Positions 2,805 through 59,834 of a DNA stretch of 64,000 nucleotides are shown here, piece by piece. The position numbers and the translations under genes were made by a program. The stretch's first letter is position 1. Each line of letters starts with the position of its first letter. The stretch lies in assembly GCF_988242995.1 (NCBI RefSeq), contig NZ_OZ547043.1. One strand, written 5' to 3'. The notes under the pieces are model-generated. The model did not search any database. It saw only the letters and a program-made list of their open reading frames with translations, and had not been told where the DNA came from.

Positions 2805-2872
2805 TATTGTTTGGATGCAAGAATGGCCCCCGTGGTGTTGTCAGGTGCATACCTGCAACGTGCGGGGGTTTT
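2805..2872 (+). ncRNA. rdlD: Candidate Rdl antisense RNA (antitoxin) of LDR copy 1; ends approximate
   Basis: Plus-strand GC-rich hairpin followed by TTTTCTCTC at about 2850-2876, antisense to the ldr mRNA leader; placement from known LDR architecture. Confidence 0.35.
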
Positions 2873-3054
2873 CTCTCTCCAGCAACCAATGCCACCAGGG
2901 ATTAAGCCCCCGCAACATTGCGCCTCACCGGAACCCTTCCGGCTTGACGCTGATTCTACGACTGTTTTTCTGTTCCGGAATCCATCACGTCTTCACTCTG
3001 TGCTGCGCATTCCGCAGAATATTATCCGCTTGCAACCGTTGCATTTTTCTTACG

Positions 3055-3085
3055 AAAAAGGCCGCAGAGTTTCACCCCTGCGGCC
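3055..3085 (-). terminator. Rho-independent terminator downstream of ldr copy 2
   Basis: Same hairpin as at 2577-2602 with A-run on plus strand. Confidence 0.6.
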
Positions 3086-3135
3086 TGATCCGGGCGCAAA
3101 TTGCCATTACGGCAGCCTGACGCCCGCATGACACG

Positions 3136-3243
3136 TTACTTCCGCTTGTTCAGCCAGTTCATGATCATACTGGCAAGAATGCCAGCAATGACCGGAGCCG
3201 CTAAATCATGCCAGAAGGCCATGCCCAGTTCTGCGAGCGTCAT
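3136..3243 (-). CDS. ldrD: Type I toxin Ldr family, 35 aa (MTLAELGMAFWHDLAAPVIAGILASMIMNWLNKRK)
   Basis: 35-aa peptide at 3' end of the 80-aa ORF-track frame; ATG (plus-strand cat) at 3241-3243; differs from copy 1 at 5 residues. Confidence 0.8.
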   Translation of the reverse strand: MTLAELGMAFWHDLAAPVIAGILASMIMNWLNKRK

Positions 3244-3291
3244 ATAGCCGCCTCTGTTGTAATGACAACGTTTCGCGGCTATTCTTGAGTG

Positions 3292-3356
3292 GTCTAGAGT
3301 CAAGATTAGCCCCCGTGGTGTTGTCAGGTGCATACCTGCAACGTGCGGGGGTTTTC
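3292..3356 (+). ncRNA. rdlD: Candidate Rdl antisense RNA of LDR copy 2; ends approximate
   Basis: Same GC-rich hairpin plus T-run as in copy 1, antisense to ldr leader. Confidence 0.35.
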
Positions 3357-3718
3357 TCTCTCCAGCGACCAATGCCACCAGGGATTAAGCCCCCGCAACA
3401 TTGCGCCTCACCGGAACCTTTCCGGCTTGCCGCTGATTCTACGACTGTTTTTTACCGTCAGCACCCGGCAATCTTCCTCATTGCGTGATGCCTTCCAGCT
3501 TAATTTCTTTATTTGCATTAGTTGCAGTTCATATCCGGGCTGACTCCAGACTGGTAGTGAAATGCGCAATTTTGTAGAATTGCGCCTCCTCGCGACCTCC
3601 CCAGTGAATCTGTTGCCTCATTTTTTACATACTGCGTATTCGACTTCTCCACCTGTTGCGCAAGAGAAACTGGGTTTATTCATTTTTGCGAGGCCGACTT
3701 CTTTCTGGACAGGACTTT

Positions 3719-4990
3719 ATGCAGCACAACACACTACCGAAACACGATCAGAAAATGCCGTTTACACGCTACGACTTCGGCTGGGTTTTATTATGCATAG
3801 GCATGGCGATTGGTGCCGGAACCGTGCTGATGCCAGTACAAATTGGCTTGAAGGGAATTTGGGTATTTATTACCGCAGCGATCATTGCTTATCCTGCCAC
3901 CTGGGTAGTGCAGGACATTTATTTAAAAACCCTTTCTGAAAGCGATTCCTGTAATGACTACACCGATATTATCAGTCATTACCTGGGGAAGAACTGGGGA
4001 ATTTTCCTCGGGGTTATCTACTTTTTGATGATTATCCACGGGATTTTTATCTACTCTCTCTCCGTGGTTTTCGACAGCGCCTCGTACCTGAAAACCTTCG
4101 GTTTAACCGATGCCGATCTTTCACAATCTCTACTTTATAAAGTCGCTATTTTCGCCGTACTGGTGGCGATTGCGTCTGGTGGTGAACGATTACTGTTTAA
4201 GATTTCCGGGCCAATGGTGGTGGTCAAAGTAGGGATTATTGTCGTGTTCGGTTTTGCGATGATCCCGCACTGGAATTTCGCCAATATAACCGCCTTCCCG
4301 CAAGCCTCCGTCTTTTTCCGCGATGTCCTGCTTACCATTCCATTTTGCTTCTTTTCTGCAGTATTTATTCAGGTACTAAACCCAATGAATATTGCCTATC
4401 GTAAACGGGAAGCGGATAAAGTACTGGCAACCCGGCTCGCGCTGCGTACCCACCGAATTAGTTATATCACGCTCATCGCGGTGATCCTGTTTTTTGCCTT
4501 TTCGTTTACCTTCTCAATTAGCCACGAAGAAGCCGTTTCTGCCTTTGAACAAAATATCTCGGCACTGGCACTGGCCGCGCAGGTGATCCCTGGGCATATC
4601 ATTCATATCACCTCTACGGTGCTGAATATCTTTGCCGTACTGACCGCATTCTTTGGCATTTATCTCGGTTTCCACGAGGCCATTAAAGGCATTATTCTCA
4701 ATCTGTTAAGCCGAATTATTGATACCAAGAAAATTAATTCACGCGTGCTGACTCTGGCGATCTGCGCTTTTATCGTCATTACGTTGACGATTTGGGTTTC
4801 GTTTCGTGTATCGGTGCTGGTGTTCTTTCAGTTGGGAAGCCCGTTATATGGCATTGTGTCGTGCCTCATTCCGTTTTTCCTGATCTATAAAGTCGCACAA
4901 CTGGAAAAACTTCGCGGATTTAAAGCCTGGCTGATTCTGCTTTACGGCATTTTGCTATGCTTGTCGCCACTGTTGAAGCTGATTGAGTAA
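3719..4990 (+). CDS. yhjV: Putative amino-acid transporter YhjV (HAAAP/serine-threonine transporter family), 423 aa
   Basis: Polytopic membrane ORF; start trimmed from ORF-track 3656 to ATG at 3719 ([10 protein letters not shown]...), giving the 423-aa length I recall for K-12 YhjV. Confidence 0.85.
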
Positions 4991-5019
4991 ACCGGAGCGC
5001 ATGGCCCCGGTTTTGTGAG

Positions 5020-6024
5020 TTAACGCTGCGGATTTTCATCCTGATCAACAGCAAAACAAGCTACCAGTTGACCGCCGTAGTCTTTTAGCTGCGGCTGCAA
5101 CTGGGTGCAGGGGCCGAAGTGCCGACGACAGCGGGCGTTAAACGCGCAGCCCGGCGGTGGATTGAGCGGGCTTGGCAGTTCACCGGTGAGCTTGATGCGC
5201 TCGCGGCGATCGTCCGGGTTCAGGCGCGGCGTCGCGGAGAGTAGCGCCTGAGTGTACGGATGACGCGGGTTATTGAAGATTTGGTCCTTCGTTCCCTTCT
5301 CCACGCAGCGGCCCAGGTACATCACCATCACTTCATCGGCAATGTGCTCAACCACTGACAGGTCGTGCGAGATAAAGACATAAGACAGCCCCAACTCCTG
5401 CTGCAAATCCATCATCAGATTCAGCACCTGCGCACGCACTGAAACGTCCAGCGCGGAAACCGGTTCATCGGCAATCACCACATCCGGGTCGAGCATCAGA
5501 CCACGGGCAATGGCGATACGCTGACGCTGACCGCCGGAGAACATATGCGGATAGCGGTCATAATGTTCGGTTTTCAGGCCGACTTTCGCCATCATCGACA
5601 GGGCTTTTTCCCGACGCTGTTCTTTGCTTAAGCTGGTATTAATCAGCAGCGGCTCCTCAAGAATTTGCCCGACTTTTTTACGTGGATTCAGCGAACCGTA
5701 AGGGTTCTGGAAGACAATCTGGATTTTCTGCCGACGCAGCTTCTGCGCCTGCGGATCGTGCTTGAGCAGATCCTGCCCCTGGTAATACAGCTCACCGCCG
5801 GTGGGCGTTTCGATCATCGTAAGCAACCGACCGAGGGTAGATTTACCGCAGCCGGATTCACCTACTACCGCCAGCGTTTTGCCACGTTCAAGGTTAAACG
5901 AAACGCCATCCAGCGCCTTCACCAGACGTTCCGGAGCGAACATACCTTTCTTCACCGGATAATGTTTTTTCAGGTCGATAGCCTGCAACAGCGGTTGTTG
6001 CGAGGTGGCCTCATGCGTACTCAT
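5020..6024 (-). CDS. dppF: Dipeptide ABC transporter ATP-binding protein DppF
   Basis: 334-aa ORF with Walker [13 protein letters not shown] signature LSGGQRQR and oligopeptide C-terminal domain; last gene of dppABCDF. Confidence 0.92.
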
Positions 6025-7004
6025 AGTGTCGGCCTCCCGGCATCATCAAGTGGGTAATGGCATTTGGACTGACGCCCGTCAGAGAGCATATTCAGCGCCG
6101 GTTCTTCAGCGCGACATCTGTCAGTGGCATAGGGGCAGCGCGGGTTAAGCAGGCAGCCGTTCGGGCGGTCGTACTTACCGGGAACGACACCTGGCAACGA
6201 CGCCAGACGTTCTTTGTCCTGAGCAAATTCCGGCAGCGCACGCAGCAATGCCTGAGTATACGGGTGACGCGGCGCATGGAAGATAGCGTGCGCATCGCCC
6301 GTTTCTACTACCTGGCCTGCATACATCACGATGATTTTATGTGCCGCTTCCGCCACCAGTGCCAGGTCATGAGTGATCAACACCAGCGCCATGTTCTCTT
6401 TCTGCTGTAGCTCCAGCAGTAGTTCAATGATTTGCGCCTGAATGGTCACGTCCAGCGCAGTGGTTGGTTCATCGGCAATCAGCAGCTTTGGCCGACAGGC
6501 AATCGCCATGGCGATCATCACGCGCTGGCTCATGCCGCCGGAAAGCTGATGCGGGTAAACATCCAGACGCGATGCCGGATCGGGAATACCGACCTGATTC
6601 AGCAGGTCAATCGCTCGCTGACGGCGGGTACTTTTGTTGCCGCCCTGATGCACCTTTATCGCTTCCATAATCTGGAAACCCACGGTGTAGCACGGGTTAA
6701 GGCTGGTCATCGGGTCCTGGAAGATCATTGCCACTTCGGCACCCACCAGGTTGCGGCGCTCTTTTTCTGAGATACGCTGTAAATCCTGACCGTTAAACTC
6801 CAGCTTTTCCGCCATTACGCGGCCCGGATAATCAATCAGCCCCATAATCGCCAGCGAACTGACCGATTTACCAGAGCCGGACTCACCCACAATCCCGACC
6901 ACTTCGCCCTGTTTTACGCTGTAGCTGATGCGGTCTACGGCGCGGAACGGTGCGCTTTCGTCGCCGAAATGCACCGATAATTTATCTACATTTAATAACG
7001 CCAT
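6021..7004 (-). CDS. dppD: Dipeptide ABC transporter ATP-binding protein DppD
   Basis: 327-aa ORF with Walker A GESGSGKS and signature LSGGMSQR; stop overlaps dppF start. Confidence 0.92.
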
Positions 7005-7014
7005 CTCGAACCTC

Positions 7015-7917
7015 TTACTGCTTCAGTTTGGGATCGAGCGCGTCACGCAGACCGTCACCCATCAGGTTAAATGCCAGCACCGTCAGCAGGATCGCCAGAC
7101 CCGGGAAGGTCACGACCCACCAGGCGCTTTGCGCGAACTGCAACACATCGGAGAGCATGGTGCCCCACTCCGGCGTTGGCGGCTGCGCCCCCATGCCGAG
7201 GAAACCAAGAGCAGCCATATCGAGAATGGCGTTAGAGAAACCGAGCGACGCCTGAACAATCAGAGGCGCAAGGCAGTTCGGGAAGATGTTAATAAACATC
7301 TGACGCATCGCCCCGGCACCTGCCACGCGAGACGCGGTAACGTAATCGCGATTCACCTCCACCAGCACGGCGGCGCGTGTTAAGCGCACATAGTGCGGCA
7401 AGGCAACGAAGGTCAGCGCCAGCGCGGCGTTACCAATCGACGGGCCGAAAATCGCCACCAGCACCAGTGCCAACAGCAGACTTGGCAGCGCCAGCATGAT
7501 ATCGACCACGCGCATGATGATGTTATCGACCAGGCCGCCGAAGTAACCGGCGATCAGGCCGAGAATAACGCCCATAATCAGCGATAACACAACTACCAGA
7601 CAGCCAACCAGCAGTGACAATCGCGCACCGTACATCAGACGCGACAGCACATCACGGCCTACGTCATCGGTGCCCAGCAAGTGCGCCATGCTGCCGCCTT
7701 CCTGCCAGGCTGGCGGGGCGAGCAGTGCATCGCGGAACTGTTCCGCCGGGTTATAGGGTGCAATCCAGTTGGCAAAGATCGCGATAAACAGCACGATGAC
7801 GACGTAAACCAGCCCGACGACCGCGCCTTTGTTGCGTTTAAAATAGTGCCAGAACTCCTGTAACGGGGTCATCGGCACCGGTGCGCTAATCACTTTATTT
7901 TCAGTAACCTGTGACAT
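7015..7917 (-). CDS. dppC: Dipeptide ABC transporter permease DppC
   Basis: 300-aa polytopic permease; operon position. Confidence 0.92.
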
Positions 7918-7926
7918 GATGTCCCC

Positions 7927-8946
7927 TTACTTCTTATGACGAATACGCGGGTTCACCACGCCGTACAGCAGATCGACCAGCAAGTTGACGAGGATAATCA
8001 TCGTCGCCACCAGCAATACGCCGCCCTGCACTACCGGATAGTCGCGGCGTTGCAGTGCGTCAATCAACCAGCGCCCCAGACCGGGCCACGAGAAGATGGT
8101 TTCGGTCAGAATCGCCCCCGCCAGCAATGTTCCCACCTGGAGGCCGATAACGGTCACTACCGGCAGCATCGCGTTACGCAGCGCATGGACGATAATCACC
8201 CGCATGCGGGTCAACCCTTTGGCGCGCGCGGTGCGGATATAATCTTCACCCAGCACTTCCAGCATCGAGGAGCGTGTCATACGCACAATGACCGCCAGCG
8301 GGATAGTACCCAGCACAATGGCGGGCAAGATCATATGGGCGACGGCATCGATAAAGTTACCGTCTTCACCCCAGATGGCGGTGTCGATCAGCATAAAACC
8401 GGTTAACGGATTGGAATCATCGAGGAACACCATGTCGCTCACGCGACCGGAGACGGGCGTCAGGTTCCAGTGCACCGAAACCAGCATGATCAGCATCATG
8501 CCCCACCAGAAGATCGGCATTGAATAACCTGTCAGCGCCAGGCCAACCGCCGTGTGATCGAAAATGGAACCGCGTTTAACCGCAGCCAGCACACCAACCG
8601 GAATACCGACTGCCGTAGCAAAAATCATCGCGCAGACGCCAAGTTCCAGCGTGGCCTGAAAGCGCGGCACGAACTCTTCCCATACCGGGATGCGGCTTTT
8701 CATCGAAATGCCTAAATCGCCGTGCATTACGCCCCAAATGTAATGGAGATACTGCTGCCACATCGGTTTATCTAAGCCGAGTTCAGCCAGCAGCTGCGCG
8801 TGACGCTCTGGGGAGATCCCACGCTCGCCCGCCATGATCATCACCGGATCGCCCGGGATCATGTGGACAAAGGCAAATGTGAGAAGGGTAATACCGATAA
8901 ACGTGGGGATGACGAGTCCCAAACGTCGGAGAATAAACTGCAACAT
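7927..8946 (-). CDS. dppB: Dipeptide ABC transporter permease DppB (339 aa)
   Basis: Permease ORF; start trimmed from ORF-track 9072 to ATG (plus-strand cat 8944-8946; MLQFILRRLGLV...). Confidence 0.9.
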   Translation of the reverse strand: MLQFILRRLGLVIPTFIGITLLTFAFVHMIPGDPVMIMAGERGISPERHAQLLAELGLDKPMWQQYLHYIWGVMHGDLGISMKSRIPVWEEFVPRFQATLELGVCAMIFATAVGIPVGVLAAVKRGSIFDHTAVGLALTGYSMPIFWWGMMLIMLVSVHWNLTPVSGRVSDMVFLDDSNPLTGFMLIDTAIWGEDGNFIDAVAHMILPAIVLGTIPLAVIVRMTRSSMLEVLGEDYIRTARAKGLTRMRVIIVHALRNAMLPVVTVIGLQVGTLLAGAILTETIFSWPGLGRWLIDALQRRDYPVVQGGVLLVATMIILVNLLVDLLYGVVNPRIRHKK

Positions 8947-9096
8947 AACCCGGATTCTCTGTAGTGACCCGCAGCCTGGAACTGCGTGTCTGTATTGCTC
9001 ACAAATCAATTCCCGCCCAGGTTGGGCAGGGAATGAAGTATTGCTGCCGGATGGCGCTGCACGCAGAGGCACAGCGCCACCGGGTATGGCTTTTAA

Positions 9097-10704
9097 TTAT
9101 TCGATAGAGACGTTTTCGAAGTGATGTTTGCCTAATGGATCAACCACATAGCCTTTAACTTCTTTGCGTACCGGTTCAAACACGGTGGAGTGAGCGATGA
9201 TCAGTGCCGGAGCCTGATCGTGCATCACCACCTGTGCTTGTTTGTACAGTTCAACGCGCTTGTTGTGGTCGTCGGTGGCACGCGCCGGTTGAATCAGATC
9301 TTCAAACGGTTTGTAGCACCATTTTGAGTAGTTGGAGCCTTGTTCAGAGGCGGCGCAGCTGAACAGGGTGGCGAAGAAGTTATCCGGATCCCCGTTATCG
9401 CCAGTCCAGCCCATCATTACCGTCTGGTGCTCGCCATCTTTCGCACGCTTGAGGTACTCACCCCATTCGTAGGTGACAATTTTGGCCTGCACGCCGACTT
9501 TCGCCCAGTCTGCCTGAATCATCTCTGCCATGCGGCGAGCGTTCGGGTTATACGGACGTTGTACCGGCATTGCCCACAGGTCGATGGAGAAGCCTTTTTC
9601 CAGGCCCGCTTCTTTCAGCAAGGCTTTCGCTTTTTCGGGATCGTAGGTGTAGTCCTGAACGTCGTCGTTATAGCCCCACATGGTTGGCGGGATCAGGTTT
9701 TTCGCTGCCACGCCCGCGCCCTGATAAACCGCTTTGATGATAGCGTCTTTGTTCACCGCGTAGGTCAGAGCCTGGCGAACTTTCACGTCATCAAGTGGTT
9801 TTTTCTGCACGTTATATGAAAGATAGCCGACGTTAAGCCCCGGCATTTCCATCAGGTTGATGGATTTATCCTGCTTCATGCGAGCGATGTCTGCCGGGTT
9901 CGGGTACGGCATCACCTGGCATTCATTCTTCTGCAATTTCGCGTAACGCACGGAAGCATCAGGGGTAATAGAGAAGACCAGCGTATCGATCTGCGGTTTG
10001 GTGCCCCAGTAGCCATCAAACGCTTTGTAGCGGATACGGGAATCTTTTTGATACTGCTGTAACTGGAACGGACCGGTGCCGATTGGGTTGAGGTCCAGTT
10101 TTTCCGGCGTACCGGCTTTCATCATCGCGTCAGCATATTCTTTTGACAGAATAGAGGCGAAGTCCATTGCCAGATCCGCGAGGAACGGCGCTTCCGGGCG
10201 AGTCAGCACGAACTGAACGGTGTTATCGTCCACCTTTTTCACTTCGCTGATCAGCTCCGGCAAGCCCATGCCTTCGAAGTATTCGTAGCTGCCGCCAGAG
10301 ACTTTATGGTACGGGTTTTGCGCGTTTTTCTGACGATCGAACGAGAACACCACGTCATCGGCGTTCAGTTCGCGCGTCGGTTTGAATTCTTTGTTGTCGT
10401 GCCACTTCACACCTTTACGCAGATGGAAGGTATAGGTTTTTCCGTCTTCGCTGACTTCCCACTTTTCAGCGAGGCCCGGGATTACTTCGGTGGTGCCGAT
10501 TTTAAATTCAACCAGGCGGTTATAAAGCGGCACGGAAGAGGCGTCATAGGTGGTACCGGAGGTAAACAGCTGCGGGTTAAACCCTTCCGGAGATCCTTCT
10601 GAGCAATAAACCAGAGTTTTAGCCTGAACACTTGCTGCGACGGTCATAGCCACCAGGCTGAGACCAAGCTTCAGCATCCCTGACTTTTTCAAGGAAATAC
10701 GCAT
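9097..10704 (-). CDS. dppA: Periplasmic dipeptide-binding protein DppA (535 aa)
   Basis: 535-aa ORF with signal peptide MRISLKKSGMLKLGLSLVAMTVAASVQA; family 5 solute-binding protein; first gene of dpp operon. Confidence 0.95.
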   Translation of the reverse strand: MRISLKKSGMLKLGLSLVAMTVAASVQAKTLVYCSEGSPEGFNPQLFTSGTTYDASSVPLYNRLVEFKIGTTEVIPGLAEKWEVSEDGKTYTFHLRKGVKWHDNKEFKPTRELNADDVVFSFDRQKNAQNPYHKVSGGSYEYFEGMGLPELISEVKKVDDNTVQFVLTRPEAPFLADLAMDFASILSKEYADAMMKAGTPEKLDLNPIGTGPFQLQQYQKDSRIRYKAFDGYWGTKPQIDTLVFSITPDASVRYAKLQKNECQVMPYPNPADIARMKQDKSINLMEMPGLNVGYLSYNVQKKPLDDVKVRQALTYAVNKDAIIKAVYQGAGVAAKNLIPPTMWGYNDDVQDYTYDPEKAKALLKEAGLEKGFSIDLWAMPVQRPYNPNARRMAEMIQADWAKVGVQAKIVTYEWGEYLKRAKDGEHQTVMMGWTGDNGDPDNFFATLFSCAASEQGSNYSKWCYKPFEDLIQPARATDDHNKRVELYKQAQVVMHDQAPALIIAHSTVFEPVRKEVKGYVVDPLGKHHFENVSIE

Positions 10705-23808: not shown

Positions 23809-25878
23809 TTACTGTAACAGCGAAATATCCGCAACGCGCAGGAACAGTTCGCGCAGTTTCTCCAGCATGGTCAAACGGTTGATACGCAATTCTTTGTCAT
23901 CAACCATGACCATCACTTTATCGAAGAAGGCATCAACCGGTTCACGCAGCTCAGCCAGTTCGACCAGCGCATCCTGGTAACGACCTTCAGCAAAGTACGG
24001 CTCCAGTTTATCGCGCAGCACAACCACCTGCATCGCCAGTTTAATTTCTTCCGGCTCTTTCAGAGTAGAAGCATTCACGCGATCGCTCAGCACTTCGTCA
24101 GACTTCGCCAGAATGTTAGATACACGTTTGTTCGCCGCCGCCAGTGCAGCAGCTGCATCCAGGGTACGGAAGTGCGATACCGCCTTCATACGGGCATCGA
24201 AATCTGCCGGACGAGTCGGACGACGCGCCAGTACCGCCTGGATGGTATCAACGGTATAACCTTCGTCCTGATACCAGGCGCGGAAGCGACCGAGCATAAA
24301 GTCGATAACATCATCAACCACGTTGGCATTAGTCAGCTTATCGCCATACAGACGCACTGCTTCTTCGGTCAGCGTTTGCAGATCAAGGTTGAGGTTCTTC
24401 TCAACGATAATGCGCAGCACACCAAGTGCGGCACGACGCAGCGCAAACGGGTCTTTATCGCCTTTCGGATGCTGACCGATACCGAAGATACCTGCCAGGG
24501 TGTCCATCTTGTCAGCAATCGCCAGCGCACAAGCCACTGGGTTAGACGGCAGGTCATCACCGGCAAAACGCGGCTGATACTGCTCGTTCAGCGCCACTGC
24601 CACATCTTCCGCTTCGCCATCGTGACGCGCGTAGTGCATCCCCATAACGCCCTGGGTGTCGGTGAACTCGAAGACCATGTTGGTCATCAGGTCGCACTTG
24701 GACAGCAGGCCCGCACGGGTTGCGTGGTTAACGTCAGCGCCAATCTGTTCAGCAATCCAGCCAGCCAGCGCCTGGATGCGGTCAGTTTTGTCGCGCAGTG
24801 TACCCAGCTGTTGCTGAAACAACACGGTTTGCAGGCGCGGCAGGTTATCTTCCAGACGTTTTTTACGGTCAGTGTTGAAGAAGAACTCGGCATCCGCCAA
24901 ACGTGGACGAACGACTTTCTCGTTACCAGAGATAATTTGCTGCGGATCTTTCGATTCGATGTTGGCAACGAAGATAAAGTTCGGCAGCAGTTTGCCGTCG
25001 TTCGCGTACACCGGGAAGTACTTCTGGTCACCTTTCATGGTGTAAACCAGCGCTTCAGACGGCACAGCGAGGAATTTCTCTTCAAATTTCGCGGTCAGCA
25101 CAACCGGCCACTCCACCAGCGAAGCCACTTCTTCCAACAGGCTTTCGCTTAAGTCAGCGTTACCGCCAATCTTACGCGCCGCTTCTTCGGCATCGGCTTT
25201 AATCTTCGCCTTACGTTCTTCGTAATCGGCGATGACTTTCCCGCGCTCACGCAGAATTTCCGGATACTGATCGGCATTGTCGATAGTGAATTCCGGCTCG
25301 CCCATAAAGCGGTGGCCGCGAATCACGCGATCGGACTGAATGCCCAGAATGGTAGCCGGAATAACTTTGTCGCCCAGCAGCAGGGTCACGGTGTGCACCG
25401 GACGCACGAAGTGCACGTCGCTTGCACCCCAACGCATCAGTTTCGGGATCGGCAGTTTCGCCAGCGAAGTCGCAACCATATTCGGCAACAGTGCTTCAGT
25501 GCTTTCGCCCTTCACGTGGGCGCGATACAGCAGCCATTCACCTTTATCGGTAGTCAGACGCTCAGCCTGGTCTACGGTAATACCGCAACCACGCGCCCAG
25601 CCTTCTGCCGCTTTGCTCGGTTTGCCTTCAGCGTCGAACGCCTGAGCAATCGCCGGGCCGCGTTTTTCGATTTCACGATCCGGTTGCGCTTCCGCCAGGT
25701 TAGCTACTTTCAGCGCCAGACGACGCGGAGCAGCAAACCATTGAACGGTGCCGTGTGCGAGACCAGCGTTATCCAGCTCCGCAGTAAAATTCGCAGCAAA
25801 GGACTCAGCCAGGCTGCGCAGTGCTTTTGGTGGCAGCTCTTCAGTGCCAATTTCCACCAGGAAAGTTTTCTCAGACAT
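23809..25878 (-). CDS. glyS: Glycine--tRNA ligase beta subunit GlyS (689 aa)
   Basis: 689-aa ORF recognised as GlyS; immediately downstream of glyQ. Confidence 0.95.
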
Positions 25879-52206: not shown

Positions 52207-52895
52207 AGCAACTGAAAGCCGACGTGCTGGCGGCAAATCTGGCACTTCCCGCTCACCATCTGGTGACGTTCACCTGGGGCAATGTCAGCGCGGTAGACGA
52301 AACGCGGCAATGGATGGTAATCAAACCTTCCGGCGTCGAGTACGACGTGATGACCGCCGACGATATGGTGGTGGTTGAGATAGCCACCGGTAAGGTGGTG
52401 GAAGGCAGAAAAAAACCCTCGTCCGACACGCCAACGCATCTGGCGCTCTACCGTCGCTATGCCGAAATCGGTGGCATTGTGCATACCCACTCGCGCCACG
52501 CGACCATCTGGTCACAGGCCGGGCTGGATCTCCCCGCCTGGGGCACCACGCACGCCGATTACTTCTATGGAGCCATCCCCTGCACGCGCCTGATGACCGC
52601 AGAAGAGATCAACGGCGAGTATGAATACCAGACTGGCGAAGTGATCATTGAAACCCTCGAAGAACGCGGCAGGAGTCCAGCGCAAATCCCGGCGGTTCTG
52701 GTACATTCTCACGGCCCGTTCGCCTGGGGAAAAAATGCCGCCGATGCAGTGCATAACGCCGTGGTGCTGGAAGAGTGCGCCTATATGGGCCTGTTCTCGC
52801 GCCAGCTTGCGCCGCAACTCCCTGCGATGCAAAACGAACTGTTGGATAAGCACTACCTGCGTAAGCATGGGGCCAATGCCTATTACGGGCAGTAA
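52200..52895 (+). CDS. sgbE: L-ribulose-5-phosphate 4-epimerase SgbE (231 aa)
   Basis: Class II aldolase/epimerase family (AraD-like); overlaps sgbU stop. Confidence 0.92.
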
Positions 52896-52926
52896 TCCCT
52901 CACGCCGGGGCTTCATCGCCCCGGCA

Positions 52927-53742
52927 CTACGAATTGATATGTTCCTTGCTGTAACGTCGCTTCCACGCAGCTGGCGTTAAACCGGTGTGTTTGCGAAAAA
53001 TCTGTCGGAAATAACCAACGTCATTAAACCCGCACAACGCCGCCACTTCCGTGAGCGATCGCGCTTCGCTAATTAACAGCTTTTCGGCTTCGCGCACTCG
53101 CTGGCGATGAATTGCTTCTGTTAACGTCAGATGAAACACCCGCCGATAGACACGCCCAAGATAATCGGCATTGCAGTACAGCTCGCGGGCTAAAAGCGCC
53201 GTGGAAAGCGGGCGATGATATTGCGTGCGGATCAGTTTCTGCGCTTTCCAGGCAAGCGTGGTACCTGCGGCATCGGCCTGTTCATCAAGACGCGCGTCAC
53301 GGGTGAGTTGCTGCAAAATCAGCAGCACAATAAACTCCAGCGCCGGAGTGCGTTGATGCTTTTCCTGTTCGCTTAAGAACTGGCGAAACAGGGCCACCAA
53401 CGCCTGCGGATCGGCAACCTTCGTTTGTTGCGGCACGCTAAGATGAGTGAGCCAGCGCGGGTCGCTATCCGGCGCTTTAACCTCAAAATGCAGCCAGTAA
53501 AATTTGAGATCGGCGGGAAAATCCTCTACCCCAACATGCTGTCGGTTCGGCCAGAGTAATAAACTCTCTCCCGCATCGACCAGAAATATCCGCTCTTCTT
53601 CCTGAATCGCTAATCGACCTTTTTCGACAAAGATAATTTCCCATGACTCCAGCCGCCTTGCCGGATGCCTCCCTACGCCACGGGAAATAAATAATCCACC
53701 ATTTTGCACTTTAATCGGTAACGTTATGGATAATTCGAGCAT
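52927..53742 (-). CDS. AraC/XylS-family transcriptional regulator (271 aa)
   Basis: N-terminal cupin-like ligand-binding region plus C-terminal double HTH (signature ...DVGYFRQIFRKHTGLTPAAWKRR); divergent from transporter gene. Confidence 0.85.
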   Translation of the reverse strand: MLELSITLPIKVQNGGLFISRGVGRHPARRLESWEIIFVEKGRLAIQEEERIFLVDAGESLLLWPNRQHVGVEDFPADLKFYWLHFEVKAPDSDPRWLTHLSVPQQTKVADPQALVALFRQFLSEQEKHQRTPALEFIVLLILQQLTRDARLDEQADAAGTTLAWKAQKLIRTQYHRPLSTALLARELYCNADYLGRVYRRVFHLTLTEAIHRQRVREAEKLLISEARSLTEVAALCGFNDVGYFRQIFRKHTGLTPAAWKRRYSKEHINS

Positions 53743-53967
53743 TGATATGTAATTTCCCGCTTATTCATTAATGATTAAACACATTACCTTTTGATTATGA
53801 ATCAAAAACATTAATTTCACCTGATCCAATTCACACTTTTAAATTCAGGTCGGAATCGTCACCTTTTTTTACTCTTTTCTCGCCTTGTTGATATTCCCGT
53901 TCACGGCAGAATTAATCATGTCATTGCAATAAAACTAAAAATTGCTCCCTATTCACGAGGAATATCT
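53743..53967. promoter_or_regulatory. Divergent promoter region between the AraC-family regulator gene and the GPH transporter–GH127 gene pair
   Basis: 225-bp AT-rich intergenic region with homopolymer tracts (ttttttt) and SD-like sequence (cacgaggaa) before the transporter ATG; individual sites not mapped. Confidence 0.4.
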
Positions 53968-55368
53968 ATGACCTCTACACCGATTACTGCCGCTGATATC
54001 GCTAAAGGTAAAATTGACGATGCGTTATCTGTACGGGAAAAAATAGGCTACGGCCTGGGTGACGCAGGCGGCACCGTAATAACTTGCCTGATCATGAACT
54101 TTCTCACCTTTTTCTACACCGACGTTTTTGGCTTAACTCCGGCGCTGGTCGGCACGCTGTTTATTGCACTGCGCGTGTTTGATGCCATCTCCGACCCGGT
54201 GATGGGCGTCATTGCCGACCGGACGCAAAGTCGCTGGGGGCGCTTTCGTCCGTGGCAGTTATGGATTGCCATTCCCATCGGCATTATCGGCATCCTGACG
54301 TTCACCGTGCCAGATGCCAGCATGGGAGTAAAAATCGCCTGGGCGTTCGGCACTTACCTGCTCCTTTCAGTCGGTTATACCGCCATCAACGTGCCGTACT
54401 GCGCGCTGATCAACACCATGACCACCCGCCACAATGAAGTGATCTCCTGCCAGTCCTGGCGATTCGTTCTCTGCGGCGTAGCGGGATTTCTGGTTTCGGT
54501 AGGCTTACCGTGGATGGTAGATCTCTTCGGTCAGGGTAATGCCGCGCGCGGCTATCAACTGGGCGTCGGCGTGCTGTGCGCCATCGCTGTGGTGATGTTC
54601 CTGTGCTGTTTCTTCTGGGTTCGTGAACGGGTGCCACTCTCCACAATGGGGAAATTTACCCTGCGCGAACATCTTGCCGGGCTGCGAAACAACGACCAAC
54701 TACTGCTGATGCTGGTCATGTCTTTCCTGCTGATTAACGTCTTTAACATTCGCGGCGGTGGGTATATGTACTTCATTACCTACGTCTTACAAGGCAGTAC
54801 GGGCTACACGTCGCTGTTCTTCACCATGGTCACCTTCGCCTCCATTATCGGCTCGGTGATTGTCAGCCCGTTAACGCGGCGTTTCGATACCGTCAAAATT
54901 TATTACTACACCAACCTGCTCCTCGCTGCGCTGGCGGTGTTGATGTGGTTCCTGCCCTCCGGCCCGGCTTATCAAACGCTGTGGCTGGCGGTGATCCTCG
55001 GTAATGGCGTGATTCTTGGCTTCACATTGCCACTGCACTTCTCATTGATGGCCTTTGCCGATGACTACGGCGAGTGGAAAACCCGCGTACGTTCTTCCGG
55101 CATGAACTTCGCCTTCAATCTGTTTTTCATCAAACTGGCCTGGGCCTCCAGCGCCGGGATCATCAGCCTGCTGTTTATTTTTGTCGCCTACCAGCCAGGC
55201 GTGGAAAACCAGACCACCAGTTCGCTTGGCGGGATCACGGCGATGGAAACATTACTGCCTGCGCTATTCCACCTGCTGCTGGCAGGGGCGATCCGCTTTT
55301 GCAAACTCAATAACCCTATGATGTCACGCATTGCTACCGACCTGCGTCAGCGTCATGTACAGCCTTAA
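53968..55368 (+). CDS. Glycoside-pentoside-hexuronide (GPH):cation symporter family transporter (MFS superfamily), 466 aa
   Basis: 12-TM ORF with N-terminal GPH-type sequence (...[25 protein letters not shown]...); stop 10 bp before GH127 start. Confidence 0.85.
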
Positions 55369-55378
55369 GGAGCACAAG

Positions 55379-57343
55379 ATGAACATTTCGGAAGTCGATC
55401 TGCATAAACTGACGGTCAGCGATCCGTTCCTCGGTCAGTACCAACAACTGGTCCGCGATGTGGTGATTCCTTATCAGTGGGACGCCTTGAACGATCGTAT
55501 CCCAGAAGCGGAACCCAGCCATGCGATTGAAAACTTTCGCATTGCCGCAGGACTGCAAGACGGTGAATTTTACGGGATGGTGTTTCAGGACAGCGACGTC
55601 GCCAAATGGCTGGAAGCGGTAGCCTGGTCGCTGTGCCAGAAGCCGGATGCCGAACTGGAAAAAACCGCTGACGAGGTAATCGAACTGGTCGCTTCCGCCC
55701 AGTGCGAAGATGGCTATCTCAATACTTACTTTACGGTAAAAGCGCCCGAAGAACGCTGGAGCAATCTGGCGGAGTGTCATGAACTTTACTGCGCCGGTCA
55801 TCTGATTGAAGCCGGAGTCGCCTTCTTCCAGGCCACGGGCAAGCGGCGCTTGCTGGAAGTGGTTTGCCGTCTGGCCGATCATATCGACAGCGTATTTGGT
55901 CCAGGTGAAAGTAAGTTACACGGTTATCCTGGTCACCCGGAAATTGAACTGGCGCTAATGCGCCTGTATGAAGTGACCGAAGAGCCGCGCTACCTGGCGC
56001 TGACGAACTATTTTGTCGAACAGCGTGGTGCGCAACCGCACTATTACGACCAGGAATATGAAAAGCGCGGGCAGACCTCGCACTGGCACACCTACGGCCC
56101 GGCGTGGATGGTGAAAGATAAAGCCTACAGCCAGGCGCATTTGCCCATCGCACAGCAACAAACCGCCATCGGACATGCAGTACGCTTTGTATATCTGATG
56201 ACTGGCGTCGCACATCTGGCGCGTTTAAGTCACGATGAAAGCAAGCGTCAGGATTGCCTGCGGCTGTGGAACAATATGGCCCAGCGTCAGTTATATATTA
56301 CCGGCGGCATTGGCTCACAAAGCAGCGGCGAAGCGTTCAGCAGCGATTACGATCTGCCGAATGACACGGTTTACGCCGAAAGCTGTGCTTCCATCGGCCT
56401 GATGATGTTCGCCCGGCGAATGCTGGAAATGGAAGGCGACAGTCAATATGCCGATGTGATGGAGCGCGCACTGTACAACACCGTGCTCGGCGGCATGGCG
56501 CTGGATGGCAAACATTTCTTCTATGTGAATCCGCTGGAAGTACATCCAAAATCGCTGAAATTCAACCATATCTACGATCACGTTAAGCCGATCCGCCAGC
56601 GTTGGTTTGGTTGCGCTTGTTGTCCGCCAAATATCGCCCGCGTGCTGACCTCGATTGGTCATTATCTCTACACGCCGCGTGAAGATGCGTTGTATATCAA
56701 CATCTACGCAGGAAACAGCATGGAAGTGCCGGTAGAAAATGGCACGTTGCGCCTGCGGGTTAGCGGGAACTATCCGTGGCAGGAACAGGTGACAATTGCG
56801 GTTGAATCGCCCCAGCCGGTGCGTCATACGCTGGCTTTACGTCTGCCGGACTGGTGCACACAGCCGCAGATCATATTGAATGGGGAAGAGGTCGGGCAGG
56901 ATATTCGTAAAGGGTATTTGCACATTACCCGCGAATGGCAGGAGGGCGACACACTGAATCTGACTTTGCCAATGCCGGTACGTCGCGTTTACGGTAACCC
57001 TCTGGTGCGTCACGTCGCCGGAAAAGTGGCGATTCAGCGCGGCCCGCTGGTGTATTGCCTGGAACAGGCCGACAACGGCGAGTCACTGCATAACCTGTGG
57101 CTGCCTACCGATGCGCCATTTACGACCTTTGACGGCAAGGGATTGTTCCGCCATAAGATCTTAATCCAGGCACCGGGTTACCGGTATGAACAGAGCAATC
57201 CAGAGCAGCAACCGCTGTGGCATTACGACAGCGCGCCAGCCAAACGCCAGCCGCAAACCCTGACCTTTATCCCGTGGTTTAGCTGGGCCAACCGGGGTGA
57301 AGGCGAAATGCGGATCTGGGTGAATGAGGAAACCAGCGCATGA
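55379..57343 (+). CDS. Glycoside hydrolase family 127 / DUF1680 protein (beta-L-arabinofuranosidase-like), 655 aa
   Basis: Start trimmed to ATG 55379 preceded by SD aaggag; contains the Cys-rich CACCPPN motif and conserved Glu/Cys positions typical of HypBA1-type enzymes; family assignment from recalled motifs, not from a search. Confidence 0.75.
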   Translation: MNISEVDLHKLTVSDPFLGQYQQLVRDVVIPYQWDALNDRIPEAEPSHAIENFRIAAGLQDGEFYGMVFQDSDVAKWLEAVAWSLCQKPDAELEKTADEVIELVASAQCEDGYLNTYFTVKAPEERWSNLAECHELYCAGHLIEAGVAFFQATGKRRLLEVVCRLADHIDSVFGPGESKLHGYPGHPEIELALMRLYEVTEEPRYLALTNYFVEQRGAQPHYYDQEYEKRGQTSHWHTYGPAWMVKDKAYSQAHLPIAQQQTAIGHAVRFVYLMTGVAHLARLSHDESKRQDCLRLWNNMAQRQLYITGGIGSQSSGEAFSSDYDLPNDTVYAESCASIGLMMFARRMLEMEGDSQYADVMERALYNTVLGGMALDGKHFFYVNPLEVHPKSLKFNHIYDHVKPIRQRWFGCACCPPNIARVLTSIGHYLYTPREDALYINIYAGNSMEVPVENGTLRLRVSGNYPWQEQVTIAVESPQPVRHTLALRLPDWCTQPQIILNGEEVGQDIRKGYLHITREWQEGDTLNLTLPMPVRRVYGNPLVRHVAGKVAIQRGPLVYCLEQADNGESLHNLWLPTDAPFTTFDGKGLFRHKILIQAPGYRYEQSNPEQQPLWHYDSAPAKRQPQTLTFIPWFSWANRGEGEMRIWVNEETSA

Positions 57344-57345
57344 TG

Positions 57346-57380
57346 CGACGCTTAACGCGTCTTATCAGTATCAACATATC
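57346..57380. repeat. REP-like palindromic element downstream of the GH127 gene
   Basis: gatgcgacgcttaacgcgtcttatcag resembles the E. coli REP consensus. Confidence 0.6.
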
Positions 57381-57414
57381 GGTGCGGTTGCCCGCCAACC
57401 ATCGAAACGCGAGA

Positions 57415-57825
57415 TTAAACGCCCGGCAATACACGCCGGGCAGCTTCCGCCAGAAACGCACTTCTGTTGGCATAGTCTGGGTTATTGCGCACGTAGGTAT
57501 CAATCTTGTTCAGTAATCTTTTTGGCATCGTAATATTGATACGTTCAGCCCGACCTTCGAACTGATTCATATTGATATCCACCAGCAACCATTGCCCGCC
57601 AATAAAGTCCTGCGCACGCTGGACCAGATGTGTTTCCACAGAGCCTGGAAGCGGCAACTCTTCATTCATCTCGCATAAGGTTTCGAAGTGCGCGACCAGT
57701 GCACTTCGCGCATCCTGGAAAGCGTAGTCCAGCGTATCACCAGCAAAATAACAGCCTGGAACATCAGGGAAAAAACCGCTGGCACTGCCGTCAGGATCAC
57801 TGTGGATATAGGCGGGATAAAACAT
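57415..57825 (-). CDS. hicB: HicB-family antitoxin (RNase-H-like N-domain plus C-terminal ribbon-helix-helix), 136 aa
   Basis: MFYPAYIHSDPDGSASGFFPDVPGCYFAGDT... N-terminus typical of HicB/UPF0150; C-terminal RHH-like segment (INITMPKRLLNKIDTYV); 14 bp downstream of hicA. Confidence 0.8.
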   Translation of the reverse strand: MFYPAYIHSDPDGSASGFFPDVPGCYFAGDTLDYAFQDARSALVAHFETLCEMNEELPLPGSVETHLVQRAQDFIGGQWLLVDINMNQFEGRAERINITMPKRLLNKIDTYVRNNPDYANRSAFLAEAARRVLPGV

Positions 57826-57841
57826 ATTGCCTCCTGAAATT

Positions 57842-58027
57842 TTAAAATGTTAAACCAGCCTGACGCCCAATTTGCGCCAGCGTACCGGGCTTAATATCTT
57901 TTTTAGGGTGCGGAACCGTCACCAGACCCGGATGAACAGGGTGGCGGAACTGATGATGACTGCCACGGGTTCGAATATGTTCCCAGCCATGCTGCTTCAG
58001 GATGGCGATCACGTCTGCACTTTTCAC
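57842..58027 (-). CDS. hicA: HicA-family mRNA-interferase toxin (61 aa)
   Basis: MKSADVIAILKQHGWEHIRTRGSHHQFRHPVHPGLVTVPHPKKDIKPGTLAQIGRQAGLTF; matches the YcfA/HicA pattern (GSHH..F.HP...G.VTVPHP.KD...GTL..I.KQAGL). Confidence 0.85.
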   Translation of the reverse strand: MKSADVIAILKQHGWEHIRTRGSHHQFRHPVHPGLVTVPHPKKDIKPGTLAQIGRQAGLTF

Positions 58028-58239
58028 ATCCCTGCCCTTCCATGATTATACACACGATACACACACAATTAGCGATAACAATCACGATAGCGCGATTTAT
58101 ATGGGCCGTCAGGGGGATAAAGTTGACTCGCTCGGAAGGAGAATAACGGTGTGCAGTAACTTGTTGAAAAGATGCGAGGAGACTCGTAATTAAGTTCAAT
58201 CAATATTCAGTCATTCAAGACGTAGACATTTGAATTGGT

Positions 58240-58285
58240 AAAACGCGTAAGCGTCGCATCAGGCAATGAATACCCAATGCGACCA
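58240..58285. repeat. REP-like palindromic element between hicA upstream region and aldB 3' end
   Basis: gcgtaagcgtcgcatcaggcaatgaatacccaatgcgacc contains REP-type inverted repeat. Confidence 0.5.
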
Positions 58286-58295
58286 GCTTCTTATA

Positions 58296-59834
58296 TCAGA
58301 ACAGCCCCAACGGTTTATCCGAATAGCTCACCAGCAGGCACTTGGTTTGCTGGTAATGCTCAAGCATCATCTTATGGGTTTCGCGTCCGATGCCCGACTG
58401 TTTGTAGCCGCCAAACGCCGCATGTGCCGGGTAAGCGTGATAACAGTTGGTCCACACGCGCCCAGCCTGAATGCCGCGCCCCATCTTATAGGCCAGATTA
58501 CCGTTGCGGCTCCAGACACCCGCGCCCAGGCCATATTGCGTGTCGTTCGCCAGCTCCAGCGCTTCTTCCATCGTTTTGAAGGTGGTCACCGCCAGCACCG
58601 GACCAAAAATTTCTTCCTGGAACACGCGCATATTATTCTGACCAAACAGAATCGTCGGTTCGAGGTAGTAGCCGTCTTTCAGTTCGCCTTCCAGCAGCTT
58701 GCGCCGCCCGCCGGTGAGCACATCAGCGCCTTCTTTTTTACCGATATCAATGTAATTGAGGATGGTTTCCAGTTGCCCGTGCGAAACCTGCGCCCCCATT
58801 TGCGTCACGCTGTCGAGTGGGTTACCGCTACGAATGCTTTCGACACGGCGGATGGCGCGTTCCATAAAGCGTTCGTAGATAGACTCCTGCACTAAAGCAC
58901 GGCTTGGACAGGTGCAAACTTCGCCCTGGTTAAAGGCAAACAGTGCAAAGCCTTCCAGCGCTTTATCGAAAAAGGCATCTTCTTCATCCATCACATCAGC
59001 AAAGAAGATATTTGGCGATTTGCCGCCCAGCTCCAGGGTTACCGGAATAATGTTTTGCGTAGCGTATTGCATAATTTGTTGGCCCACTTCCGTTGAGCCG
59101 GTAAACGCCACTTTAGCGATGCGTTTCGAGGTCGCCAGATATTCGCCAATTTCCCCACCTGCACCGTTGACCACGTTCACCACGCCTGGCGGCAGTAAAT
59201 CACCGACGATTTCCATTAGCAGCAGTACAGAAAGCGGGGTAAGACGTGCGGGTTTCAGCACCACACAGTTGCCCGCCGCCAGCGCGGGGGCCATTTTCCA
59301 GCTCGCCATCAGCAGCGGGAAGTTCCACGGAATAATCTGCCCCACCACGCCTAACGGTTCGTGGAAGTGATAAGCCACAGTTTCGCTATCCACTTCACTA
59401 ATACCGCCTTCCTGCGCCCGAATACACGAGGCGAAATAGCGGAAATGGTCAATCGCCAGCGGCACATCGGCAGCACTGGTTTCGCGAATGGGTTTGCCGT
59501 TATCCCAGGTTTCAGCGGTCGCTAACAGTTCGAGGTTCTGCTCCATCCGATCGGCAATCTTAAACAGAATCGCCGCGCGATCCTGCACCGAGGTATGCGC
59601 CCATTTATCTTTCACTTTGTGCGCAGCATCCAGCGCCAGATCGATATCTCGTTTGCCCGAAGACGCCACTTCGCACAGCAGCTGCCCGGTCACCGGCGTC
59701 AGGTTCTGGTAATACTCGCCGTCGGCAGGGGCTACCCATTCGCCGCCAATAAAGTTGTCGTAGCGGGCTTTTAACTTGAGGGGGAAACCATACTCGCCGG
59801 GCTTAATCTGTGCTGAAGGGGGATTATTGGTCAT
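58296..59834 (-). CDS. aldB: Aldehyde dehydrogenase B (AldB), 512 aa
   Basis: Start trimmed from 59924 to ATG (plus-strand cat 59832-59834; [17 protein letters not shown]...); ALDH motifs (catalytic Cys in GQNCTCPSR-like context). Confidence 0.93.

Follow-up and report, generated by a model that had tools for sequence, protein, structure and literature searches.

A regulator, symporter and GH127 hydrolase cassette of Escherichia coli with a putative role in beta-L-arabinofuranoside scavenging

Here we analyze a compact three-gene cassette (52927-57343) within a 64,000-nucleotide stretch of Escherichia coli DNA (contig NZ_OZ547043.1 of NCBI RefSeq assembly GCF_988242995.1), the whole of which we call the window and whose coordinates are used throughout unless a locus is named. 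The cassette encodes an AraC/XylS-family regulator, a GPH:cation symporter and a cysteine glycosidase of glycoside hydrolase family 127 (GH127), and we consider that it probably serves as an inducible scavenging system that takes in a small beta-L-arabinofuranoside and gives out L-arabinose. Judged by the Pfam match of the hydrolase (E = 1e-111), the passing of the TIGR00792 cut-off by the symporter, intact orthologues in six other genera and ratios of nonsynonymous to synonymous substitution rates (dN/dS) of 0.03-0.14, these genes lie far beyond what chance would produce.

In the mechanism that we propose, the regulator would sense the glycoside or its product through a cupin domain and, probably in concert with cAMP-CRP, switch on a weak sigma-70 promoter located between the divergent genes. 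Import of the glycoside by the GPH symporter would then be driven by a cation gradient, and the cytoplasmic GH127 enzyme would cleave it by means of a zinc-bound nucleophile, C414, and an acid/base residue, E318, passing the released L-arabinose to the ordinary araBAD pathway. Substrates may include beta-L-arabinofuranosyl-L-arabinose disaccharides or similar small glycosides, which other organisms would release from plant hydroxyproline-rich glycoproteins, arabinans or arabinogalactan proteins.

Genes, protein families and conservation of the cassette

An open reading frame (ORF) listing of the window places the three genes at the coordinates and on the strands given in the original prediction, an earlier reading of the bare sequence. 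The regulator gene (52927-53742, minus strand, 271 amino acids) diverges from the symporter gene (53968-55368, plus strand, 466 amino acids), which encodes a probable glycoside importer and is followed on the same strand by the GH127 gene (55379-57343). The hydrolase has 654 amino acids plus a stop codon, one residue fewer than the 655 first counted. Between the symporter stop codon (TAA, 55366-55368) and the hydrolase ATG at 55379 lie 10 nucleotides, and the Shine-Dalgarno sequence of the hydrolase gene (AAGGAG, 55367-55372, plus strand) overlaps that stop codon; both the spacing and the separate ribosome-binding site had been correctly described. Because of this overlap, we read the symporter and hydrolase genes as one operon, the translation of which is probably coupled. 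A longer, TTG-initiated ORF for the hydrolase begins at 55331, and the ATG at 55379 is the supported start, because the orthologues have 651-656 amino acids and the RefSeq annotation agrees.

Profile searches bear out the assignment of all three products to the AraC, GPH and GH127 families. The hydrolase matches the PF07944 catalytic domain (residues 12-427, E = 1.1e-111), the GH127 middle domain PF20736 (residues 438-532, E = 2.6e-23) and the GH127 C-terminal domain PF20737 (residues 534-649, E = 3.4e-25). Its closest match in the PDB is 4QJY, a Geobacillus GH127 protein entered there as a beta-L-arabinofuranosidase (E = 1e-235, 787 bits, 54% identity over 646 aligned positions), followed by HypBA1 of Bifidobacterium longum (E = 1e-152, 513 bits, 41% identity), with the Bacteroides GH127 structures 6EX6 (392 bits) and 5MQO (320 bits) scoring lower. 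From the 54% identity to 4QJY, we would expect an (alpha/alpha)6 barrel together with a pair of beta-sandwich domains; an AlphaFold model computed with 13 close orthologues (84-98% identity) reached a mean predicted local distance difference test score of only 50.7 and was not used.

In HypBA1, Cys417 is the nucleophile, Glu322 the acid/base residue, and zinc is held by three cysteines and one glutamate (PMC8106489), while H142, Y145, H194 and R273 bind the substrate (PMC10850190). Alignment places C414 of the E. coli protein at the nucleophile and E318 at the acid/base position, finds the Cys3-Glu zinc site in E334, C336, C414 and C415 (HypBA1 E338, C340, C417 and C418), and matches the four substrate-binding residues with H134, Y137, H186 and R269, so that the comparison with HypBA1 called for at the outset finds the whole named active site in place. 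The codons for E318, E334 and C336 lie at 56330-56386, and those for C412-A-C414-C415-P-P-N, the CACCPPN motif first remarked on as typical of HypBA1-type enzymes (residues 412-418), at 56612-56632, both on the plus strand. Catalytic, zinc-ligand and substrate-binding residues are all invariant in 13 enterobacterial orthologues (alignment A3). The roles of E318 and C414 in catalysis and of the zinc ligands are predictions transferred from HypBA1, and the putative activity of the enzyme is that of a beta-L-arabinofuranosidase (EC 3.2.1.185). Because the hydrolase has neither a signal peptide nor a hydrophobic segment (maximum Kyte-Doolittle score over 19 residues, 1.2), it is predicted to be cytoplasmic, in keeping with the proposed pairing of an intracellular enzyme with a symporter encoded in the same operon.

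With 331.7 bits against a cut-off of 231.35, the symporter is recognized by the GPH model TIGR00792, all of which (positions 1-437 of 437) aligns with residues 25-462. A crude hydropathy scan shows a polytopic membrane protein with approximately 10 clear peaks and some weaker ones. The sequence contains F-D-A-I-S-D-P at what we take to be the position of the acidic cation-site motif D55-x-x-N58-D59 in helix 2 of MelB. Membership of a named subfamily was considered and rejected: the best-scoring named model, the YagG-type putative symporter of NCBIfam, gave 354 bits against a cut-off of 610, followed by PRK11462 (323 against 836), MelB (206 against 456) and the glucuronide transporter (191 against 528). 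A search among 1.8 billion cluster representatives, clustered at 50% identity, found the symporter to be rather isolated, with a single full-length cluster at 62% identity, a further pair at 42-43% and everything else at 39% or less. Outside the enterobacteria, the gene for the 62%-identity relative directly follows one with GH51-type alpha-L-arabinofuranosidase domains, and that for a 42%-identity relative is itself followed after 4 bp by a GH43 gene. These two gene contexts point to arabinose-containing glycosides as the likely cargo of this symporter branch.

Orthologues of the hydrolase with 84-88% identity are found in Salmonella, Kluyvera, Klebsiella, Kosakonia, Enterobacter, Citrobacter and Scandinavium. 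Five genera, represented by Klebsiella michiganensis, Kluyvera ascorbata, Enterobacter ludwigii, Citrobacter sedlakii and Kosakonia sacchari, have exactly the same divergent order of regulator, symporter and hydrolase, with the hydrolase gene starting 10-13 nucleotides after the symporter gene. Comparisons with six genera, in which synonymous sites are saturated, gave dN/dS values of 0.05-0.14 for the regulator, 0.06-0.10 for the symporter and 0.03-0.07 for the hydrolase; all three genes are under strong purifying selection. In K. sacchari the cassette occupies an unrelated chromosomal site downstream of ychF (3968-10514 of the retrieved locus), where it adjoins a 38-amino-acid integrase arm-binding fragment and small unannotated ORFs. 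This setting suggests that the Kosakonia cassette arrived on an integrative element, and the unrelated site near an integrase fragment shows that the cassette moves as a unit.

Control region and distribution within E. coli

The regulator contains the DNA-binding domains HTH_18 (residues 184-263, E = 4e-19) and HTH_AraC (E = 5e-8) and an AraC_binding cupin domain (residues 26-132, E = 1.5e-8). It is not AraC itself, its best NCBIfam match being NF007860 at 61.2 bits against a cut-off of 208, and a PDB sequence search with the regulator matched the DNA-binding domain only, giving no clue to the effector.

The divergent control region between regulator and symporter genes (53743-53967) comprises 225 bp of approximately 40% GC, and in its alignment across seven genera (A2) six blocks are invariant while the sequence between them varies freely. 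Starting from the regulator, the first of these, TTGATTAT (53791-53798; columns 70-76 of A2), reads nATAAT on the minus strand and is a candidate -10 element of the regulator gene. It is followed by a CRP-like site (53820-53839; minus strand AAAGTGTGA-N6-TCAGG), within which the pattern GATC-N4-TCACA-N-TTT (53823-53839) is invariant across the seven genera; with one perfect half-site and a center near -91, it represents a candidate CRP site. The blocks GGTCGGAAT (53848-53856) and CTTTTTnTACT (53863-53873) lie upstream of the -35 element, between about -46 and -71, and are regarded as candidate activator sites because the layout is analogous to that of araI at the araBAD promoter. The remaining blocks, CTTGTnG (53884-53890) and GCAnAAT (53906-53912), underlie a candidate weak operon promoter on the plus strand (53885-53912), in which TTGTTG (53885-53890) and CAGAAT (53907-53912) are separated by a 16-nucleotide spacer and 8 of the 12 consensus positions are matched, a score under the threshold of the promoter scan. 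No Rfam leader or riboswitch family matched the control region.

The E. coli control region further holds a 23-nucleotide direct repeat (53764-53786 and 53791-53813; 74% identity, 27 nucleotides from start to start) and, in its regulator-proximal half, a perfect 8-bp palindrome, TTTTGATT-ATG-AATCAAAA (within 53764-53813). Neither was retained as an operator, as the other genera keep only the TTGATTAT core.

Taking as presence at least 80% coverage of the 4,021 bp that are missing from K-12 (53031-57051), we found the cassette segment in 2313 of 5426 complete E. coli genomes (approximately 43%), leaving 57% without it. In carriers it is always chromosomal and almost always single-copy. Among them are O157:H7, O145, strain C122 and NEBExpress_Iq, a protein-expression host derived from E. 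coli B, whose three cassette genes all carry intact annotations (locus 2897-7328).

K-12 MG1655 retains a scar between sgbE and yiaT (locus 1228-1521) that corresponds to window positions 52927-53030 and 57052-57241. Here, the last 34 codons of the regulator run into what is left of the hydrolase gene, a decayed stretch that corresponds to residues 559-621 with 88% nucleotide identity, through a blunt junction at 53030|57052 with no microhomology, the second breakpoint being at 57241. Many amino acids have changed in the hydrolase fragment; RefSeq annotation treats it as an incomplete 'hypothetical protein' and the regulator piece as an AraC-family pseudogene, likewise incomplete. The original prediction was thus right that K-12 lacks the cassette and wrong that it has yiaT, yiaU, yiaV and yiaW instead, since K-12 has a scar and other strains (AR_0015, O157:H7 and the E. 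coli B derivative) carry both the cassette and yiaT-W; in the window strain, hicBA occupies the yiaT-W position. Across E. coli strains, the interval from sgbE to aldB, the comparison of which had been proposed, was found in states with the cassette, the scar, yiaT-W, hicBA or nothing. The ancestral order was probably cassette, yiaTUVW, hicBA and aldB, followed by differential losses.

It had also been suggested that the neighboring pentose operons hint at the product. These operons are indeed near, with yiaK-sgbE directly upstream and the xyl operons approximately 15-23 kb upstream of the cassette, but their presence provides no functional evidence in view of the contexts seen elsewhere. O157:H7 strain F8952 has lost the whole yiaK-sgbE operon and kept both the cassette and yiaT-W (locus 2871-3828), and the Enterobacter and Citrobacter cassettes have no adjacent yiaK-S; on this synteny, together with the Kosakonia locus, a dependence of the cassette on the yiaK-S operon was rejected. 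In F8952, the stop codon of the AraC-family gene directly borders on what remains of an IclR-family regulator gene, which stands at the position of yiaJ.

The proposed substrate and its alternatives

Several observations weigh against reading the cassette as a beta-L-arabinofuranoside scavenging system. GH127 enzymes have other specificities, among them aceric-acid hydrolase and 3,6-anhydro-D-galactosidase, and the activity of 4QJY rests on the title of its deposit and on a crystallization paper that reportedly deduced it from similarity to HypBA1. The E. coli hydrolase also lacks 12 residues that match HypBA1 39-50 and make up most of loop A (residues 35-49), the lid that covers the HypBA1 active site (PMC10850190), such that its aglycone preference may differ from that for the disaccharide Araf-beta1,2-Ara (beta-Ara2; Araf, arabinofuranosyl) while the sugar pocket appears HypBA1-like. 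At the level of regulation, matches to the CRP consensus occur at chance level in the window (26 found against 24 expected), so that the CRP-like site gains weight only through its conservation across genera, and a sigma-70 promoter scan of 52800-58400 found none. K-12 has lost positions 53031-57051, some strains have nothing between sgbE and aldB, and a lineage of Salmonella enterica subsp. enterica has no symporter gene and retains the regulator and an intact GH127 gene; because it has been lost so often, in K-12, in the 'empty' strains and, for the transporter alone, in this Salmonella lineage, the cassette is dispensable. Finally, the searchable literature, in which few subscription journals are covered, yielded no enzymology, genetics, growth or induction data for an enterobacterial GH127 protein.

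The missing lid is the one clear departure from HypBA1. The short form of loop A is shared by Geobacillus 4QJY, which makes the loop a feature of HypBA1 and not of the family as a whole; it bears on specificity and not on membership of GH127. Mainly because of this missing loop, we lean somewhat against beta-Ara2 specifically being the substrate, while holding that some small beta-L-arabinofuranoside probably is.

An enzyme and symporter of the same architecture could handle a different glycoside, such as another furanoside or a modified pentoside, and this we regard as unlikely. The range of known GH127 specificities and the largely absent lid leave room for such a substrate, as does a regulator whose sensing domain resembles no solved structure by sequence. 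The aceric acid hydrolase model NF049879 of NCBIfam also matches the hydrolase with 453 bits; that match, however, lies far under the cut-off of 950 and is limited to residues 252-649, and the identity was rejected. Structures labeled as arabinofuranosidases score highest (787 and 513 bits, against 392 and 320 for 6EX6 and 5MQO), every named sugar-binding and catalytic residue of HypBA1 is conserved, and relatives of the transporter adjoin arabinofuranosidase-type genes. In favor of a different substrate, a Salmonella orthologue has been reported to be induced on lactulose: in an RNA-seq study of Salmonella Kentucky, the GH127 gene was expressed more highly on lactulose than on glucose (PMC13304739). 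With glucose as the control, simple catabolite derepression explains this result, which is consistent with catabolite control and indicates that the orthologue is expressed, but is not proof that lactulose is a substrate.

Less likely again is a loose coupling of the two proteins, in which the symporter would carry in arabino-oligosaccharides with alpha linkages or other pentosides, and the task of the GH127 enzyme would be to remove the occasional beta-L-arabinofuranosyl cap from material arriving by several routes. What speaks for this is the Salmonella enterica lineage noted above, in which exactly the symporter has been deleted and the hydrolase is still under purifying selection (dN/dS 0.066), together with the finding that the closest outside relatives of the symporter are paired with GH51-type and GH43 genes and not with GH127. 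Set against this, the two genes lie 10-13 nucleotides apart behind one shared promoter region in six genera, and the E. coli cassette has no alpha-arabinofuranosidase gene with which to process alpha-linked imports. The Salmonella deletion itself is exact: a 10-codon ORF, ATGACCTCTATAGCCTTAAGGAGCACGAAATGA, joins the first to the last codons of the symporter gene and preserves the Shine-Dalgarno site of the hydrolase (locus 7738-8000). The symporter is retained, with 89-90% identity, in subspecies diarizonae, arizonae and houtenae.

Lastly, the notion that E. coli carries the cassette as a cryptic remnant, intact by inheritance, no longer expressed or useful and in the course of being lost, has in its favor the 57% of complete genomes that do not carry it, the K-12 scar, the strains empty between sgbE and aldB and the failure to detect a consensus promoter, but is the least probable of the three in the face of dN/dS values of 0.03-0.14 across genera with saturated synonymous sites, promoter blocks invariant in seven genera, a transcriptionally responsive Salmonella orthologue and, among the loci with an intact cassette for which annotation was retrieved, a sole pseudogene flag that reflects C-terminal variation.

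Flanking sequence, related systems and wider meaning

The cassette region is 99.8% identical to the public record of an E. coli isolate from a human rectal swab, in which it is flanked by the yiaK-sgbE operon directly upstream and by hicB-hicA-aldB downstream. Between the convergent sgbE and AraC-family genes lies a GC-rich hairpin, GCCGGGGC-TTCATC-GCCCCGGC (52904-52925), which is probably a bidirectional terminator; a terminator scan did not list it, its stem having no T-run after it. At the other end, a repetitive extragenic palindromic (REP)-like palindrome overlaps the GH127 stop codon (57338-57368), and with homology between strains ending at 57332-57338, it forms both the 3' boundary of the cassette and a recombination breakpoint. 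Because the GH127 ORF runs into this REP region, where homology breaks, its C-terminus varies between strains: following ...WVNEE, the protein ends in TSA* in the window (57332-57343), in KHCHP* in AR_0015 and O157:H7 and in TSAIRR* in 20AR0734. The idea that the gene is commonly inactivated was discarded, as the RefSeq 'frameshifted' flag in 20AR0734 reflects this variant C-terminus (...EETSAIRR*), with no internal stop codon.

Downstream of the GH127 gene, a HicA/HicB toxin-antitoxin pair (hicB, 57415-57825; hicA, 57842-58027; both on the minus strand) lies between inverted REP-like copies at 57338-57368 and 58236-58265. In K-12, AR_0015 and O157:H7, only a remnant of approximately 114 bp of the hicB 3' end (81-83% identical) is left between yiaW and aldB, and in Enterobacter ludwigii hicBA directly follows the GH127 gene. 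Three tandem Ldr-family type I toxin genes approximately 480 bp apart (2884-3957), annotated in the near-identical public record, and the hokA toxin gene at approximately 24048-24200 are ordinary E. coli features unrelated to the cassette.

Among characterized or deposited relatives, Ara127N of Geobacillus stearothermophilus T6 (4QJY, 4QK0) shares with the E. coli enzyme the three-domain layout, the C-A-C-C-P-P-N motif and the short lid loop. The Geobacillus gene is reportedly the last of a large arabinan-utilization cluster with ABC transporters, whereas its E. coli counterpart belongs to a minimal set of three genes whose transporter is a GPH symporter. Within E. coli itself, pairs of a GPH symporter and a cytoplasmic glycosidase are familiar, namely melB-melA with MelR, yicJ-yicI, yagG-yagH and uidB-uidA. 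The cassette follows the same operon design of importer and glycosidase, and melAB also has a divergent AraC-family activator; it differs from these pairs in that none of them uses a GH127 enzyme. The araC-araBAD system likewise combines a divergent regulator, an activator bound upstream of a weak -35 element and a CRP site further upstream. In the cassette, too, an AraC-family gene is divergent, conserved blocks precede a weak -35 element and a CRP-like site lies beyond them, but the regulator is not AraC, the sites are predictions and the CRP match is weak.

In B. longum, Araf-beta1,2-Ara is freed from hydroxyproline-rich glycoproteins outside the cell by a GH121 enzyme, taken up by an ABC transporter and split by intracellular HypBA1 into two molecules of L-arabinose; the releasing GH121 enzymes are almost confined to bifidobacteria and Xanthomonas (PMC7263609). 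The HypBA1/HypBA2/HypAA system of B. longum JCM 1217 shares with our proposal an intracellular GH127 enzyme with the same catalytic, zinc-binding and sugar-binding residues and the same logic of import followed by cleavage. It differs in using an ABC importer with a beta-Ara2-specific binding protein where E. coli has a cation symporter, in its extracellular GH121 and GH43 partners, which have no nearby counterpart in E. coli, and in a hydrolase that is only 41% identical. The cassette is therefore not a member of the bifidobacterial beta-arabinooligosaccharide system, and the two are alike at the step of import and cleavage. The flanks examined (E. coli and six other genera) encode neither a GH121- or GH43-type glycoside hydrolase nor an ABC sugar importer that is part of the cassette. 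Because these flanks hold no releasing enzyme and GH121 is nearly confined to other bacteria, E. coli would depend on other organisms for its substrate, and both observations fit the role of a scavenger.

The description of this module as uncharacterized holds in part: no E. coli biochemistry was found in the searchable literature, and a recent survey of carbohydrate metabolism in the Enterobacteriaceae makes no mention of the GH127 enzyme of the cassette. On the other hand, RefSeq already attaches the family labels glycoside hydrolase family 127 protein, MFS transporter and AraC family transcriptional regulator to thousands of genomes, and the gene appears in a pangenome study of inflammatory bowel disease (IBD) isolates among those that co-segregate with epithelial invasion, where a HypBA1-like activity was assumed and not tested (PMC11879602). 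The cassette thus represents, in an enzyme family already known, an uncharacterized group of orthologues, and its arrangement follows the GPH, glycosidase and AraC-type pattern familiar from E. coli; it challenges no current concept and adds one more accessory sugar module.

A more far-reaching proposal, which we put forward tentatively and without expecting that all of it will hold, is that a sizeable share of E. coli, including O157:H7, laboratory strains of E. coli B and many gut isolates, can feed on beta-L-arabinofuranosyl disaccharides or Araf-beta-hydroxyproline freed from plant glycoproteins of the diet by primary degraders such as bifidobacteria, through a proton-coupled GPH importer new to this sugar and a 'lidless' clade of GH127 with a different aglycone range. 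If true, the cassette would be a strain-specific niche determinant and could explain the segregation of GH127 with invasive IBD isolates in one pangenome study. The intact GH127 gene of NEBExpress_Iq also represents a possible endogenous background in assays of recombinant beta-L-arabinofuranosidases. Should the prediction of a scavenging system hold, 43% of sequenced E. coli would possess a route to L-arabinose that K-12 does not have, and its absence from K-12 would account for its having gone unnoticed in classical genetics. For E. coli and Salmonella, L-arabinose is known to matter as a nutrient in the gut, and cross-feeding from plant glycoproteins would add to its use a strain-variable colonization trait.

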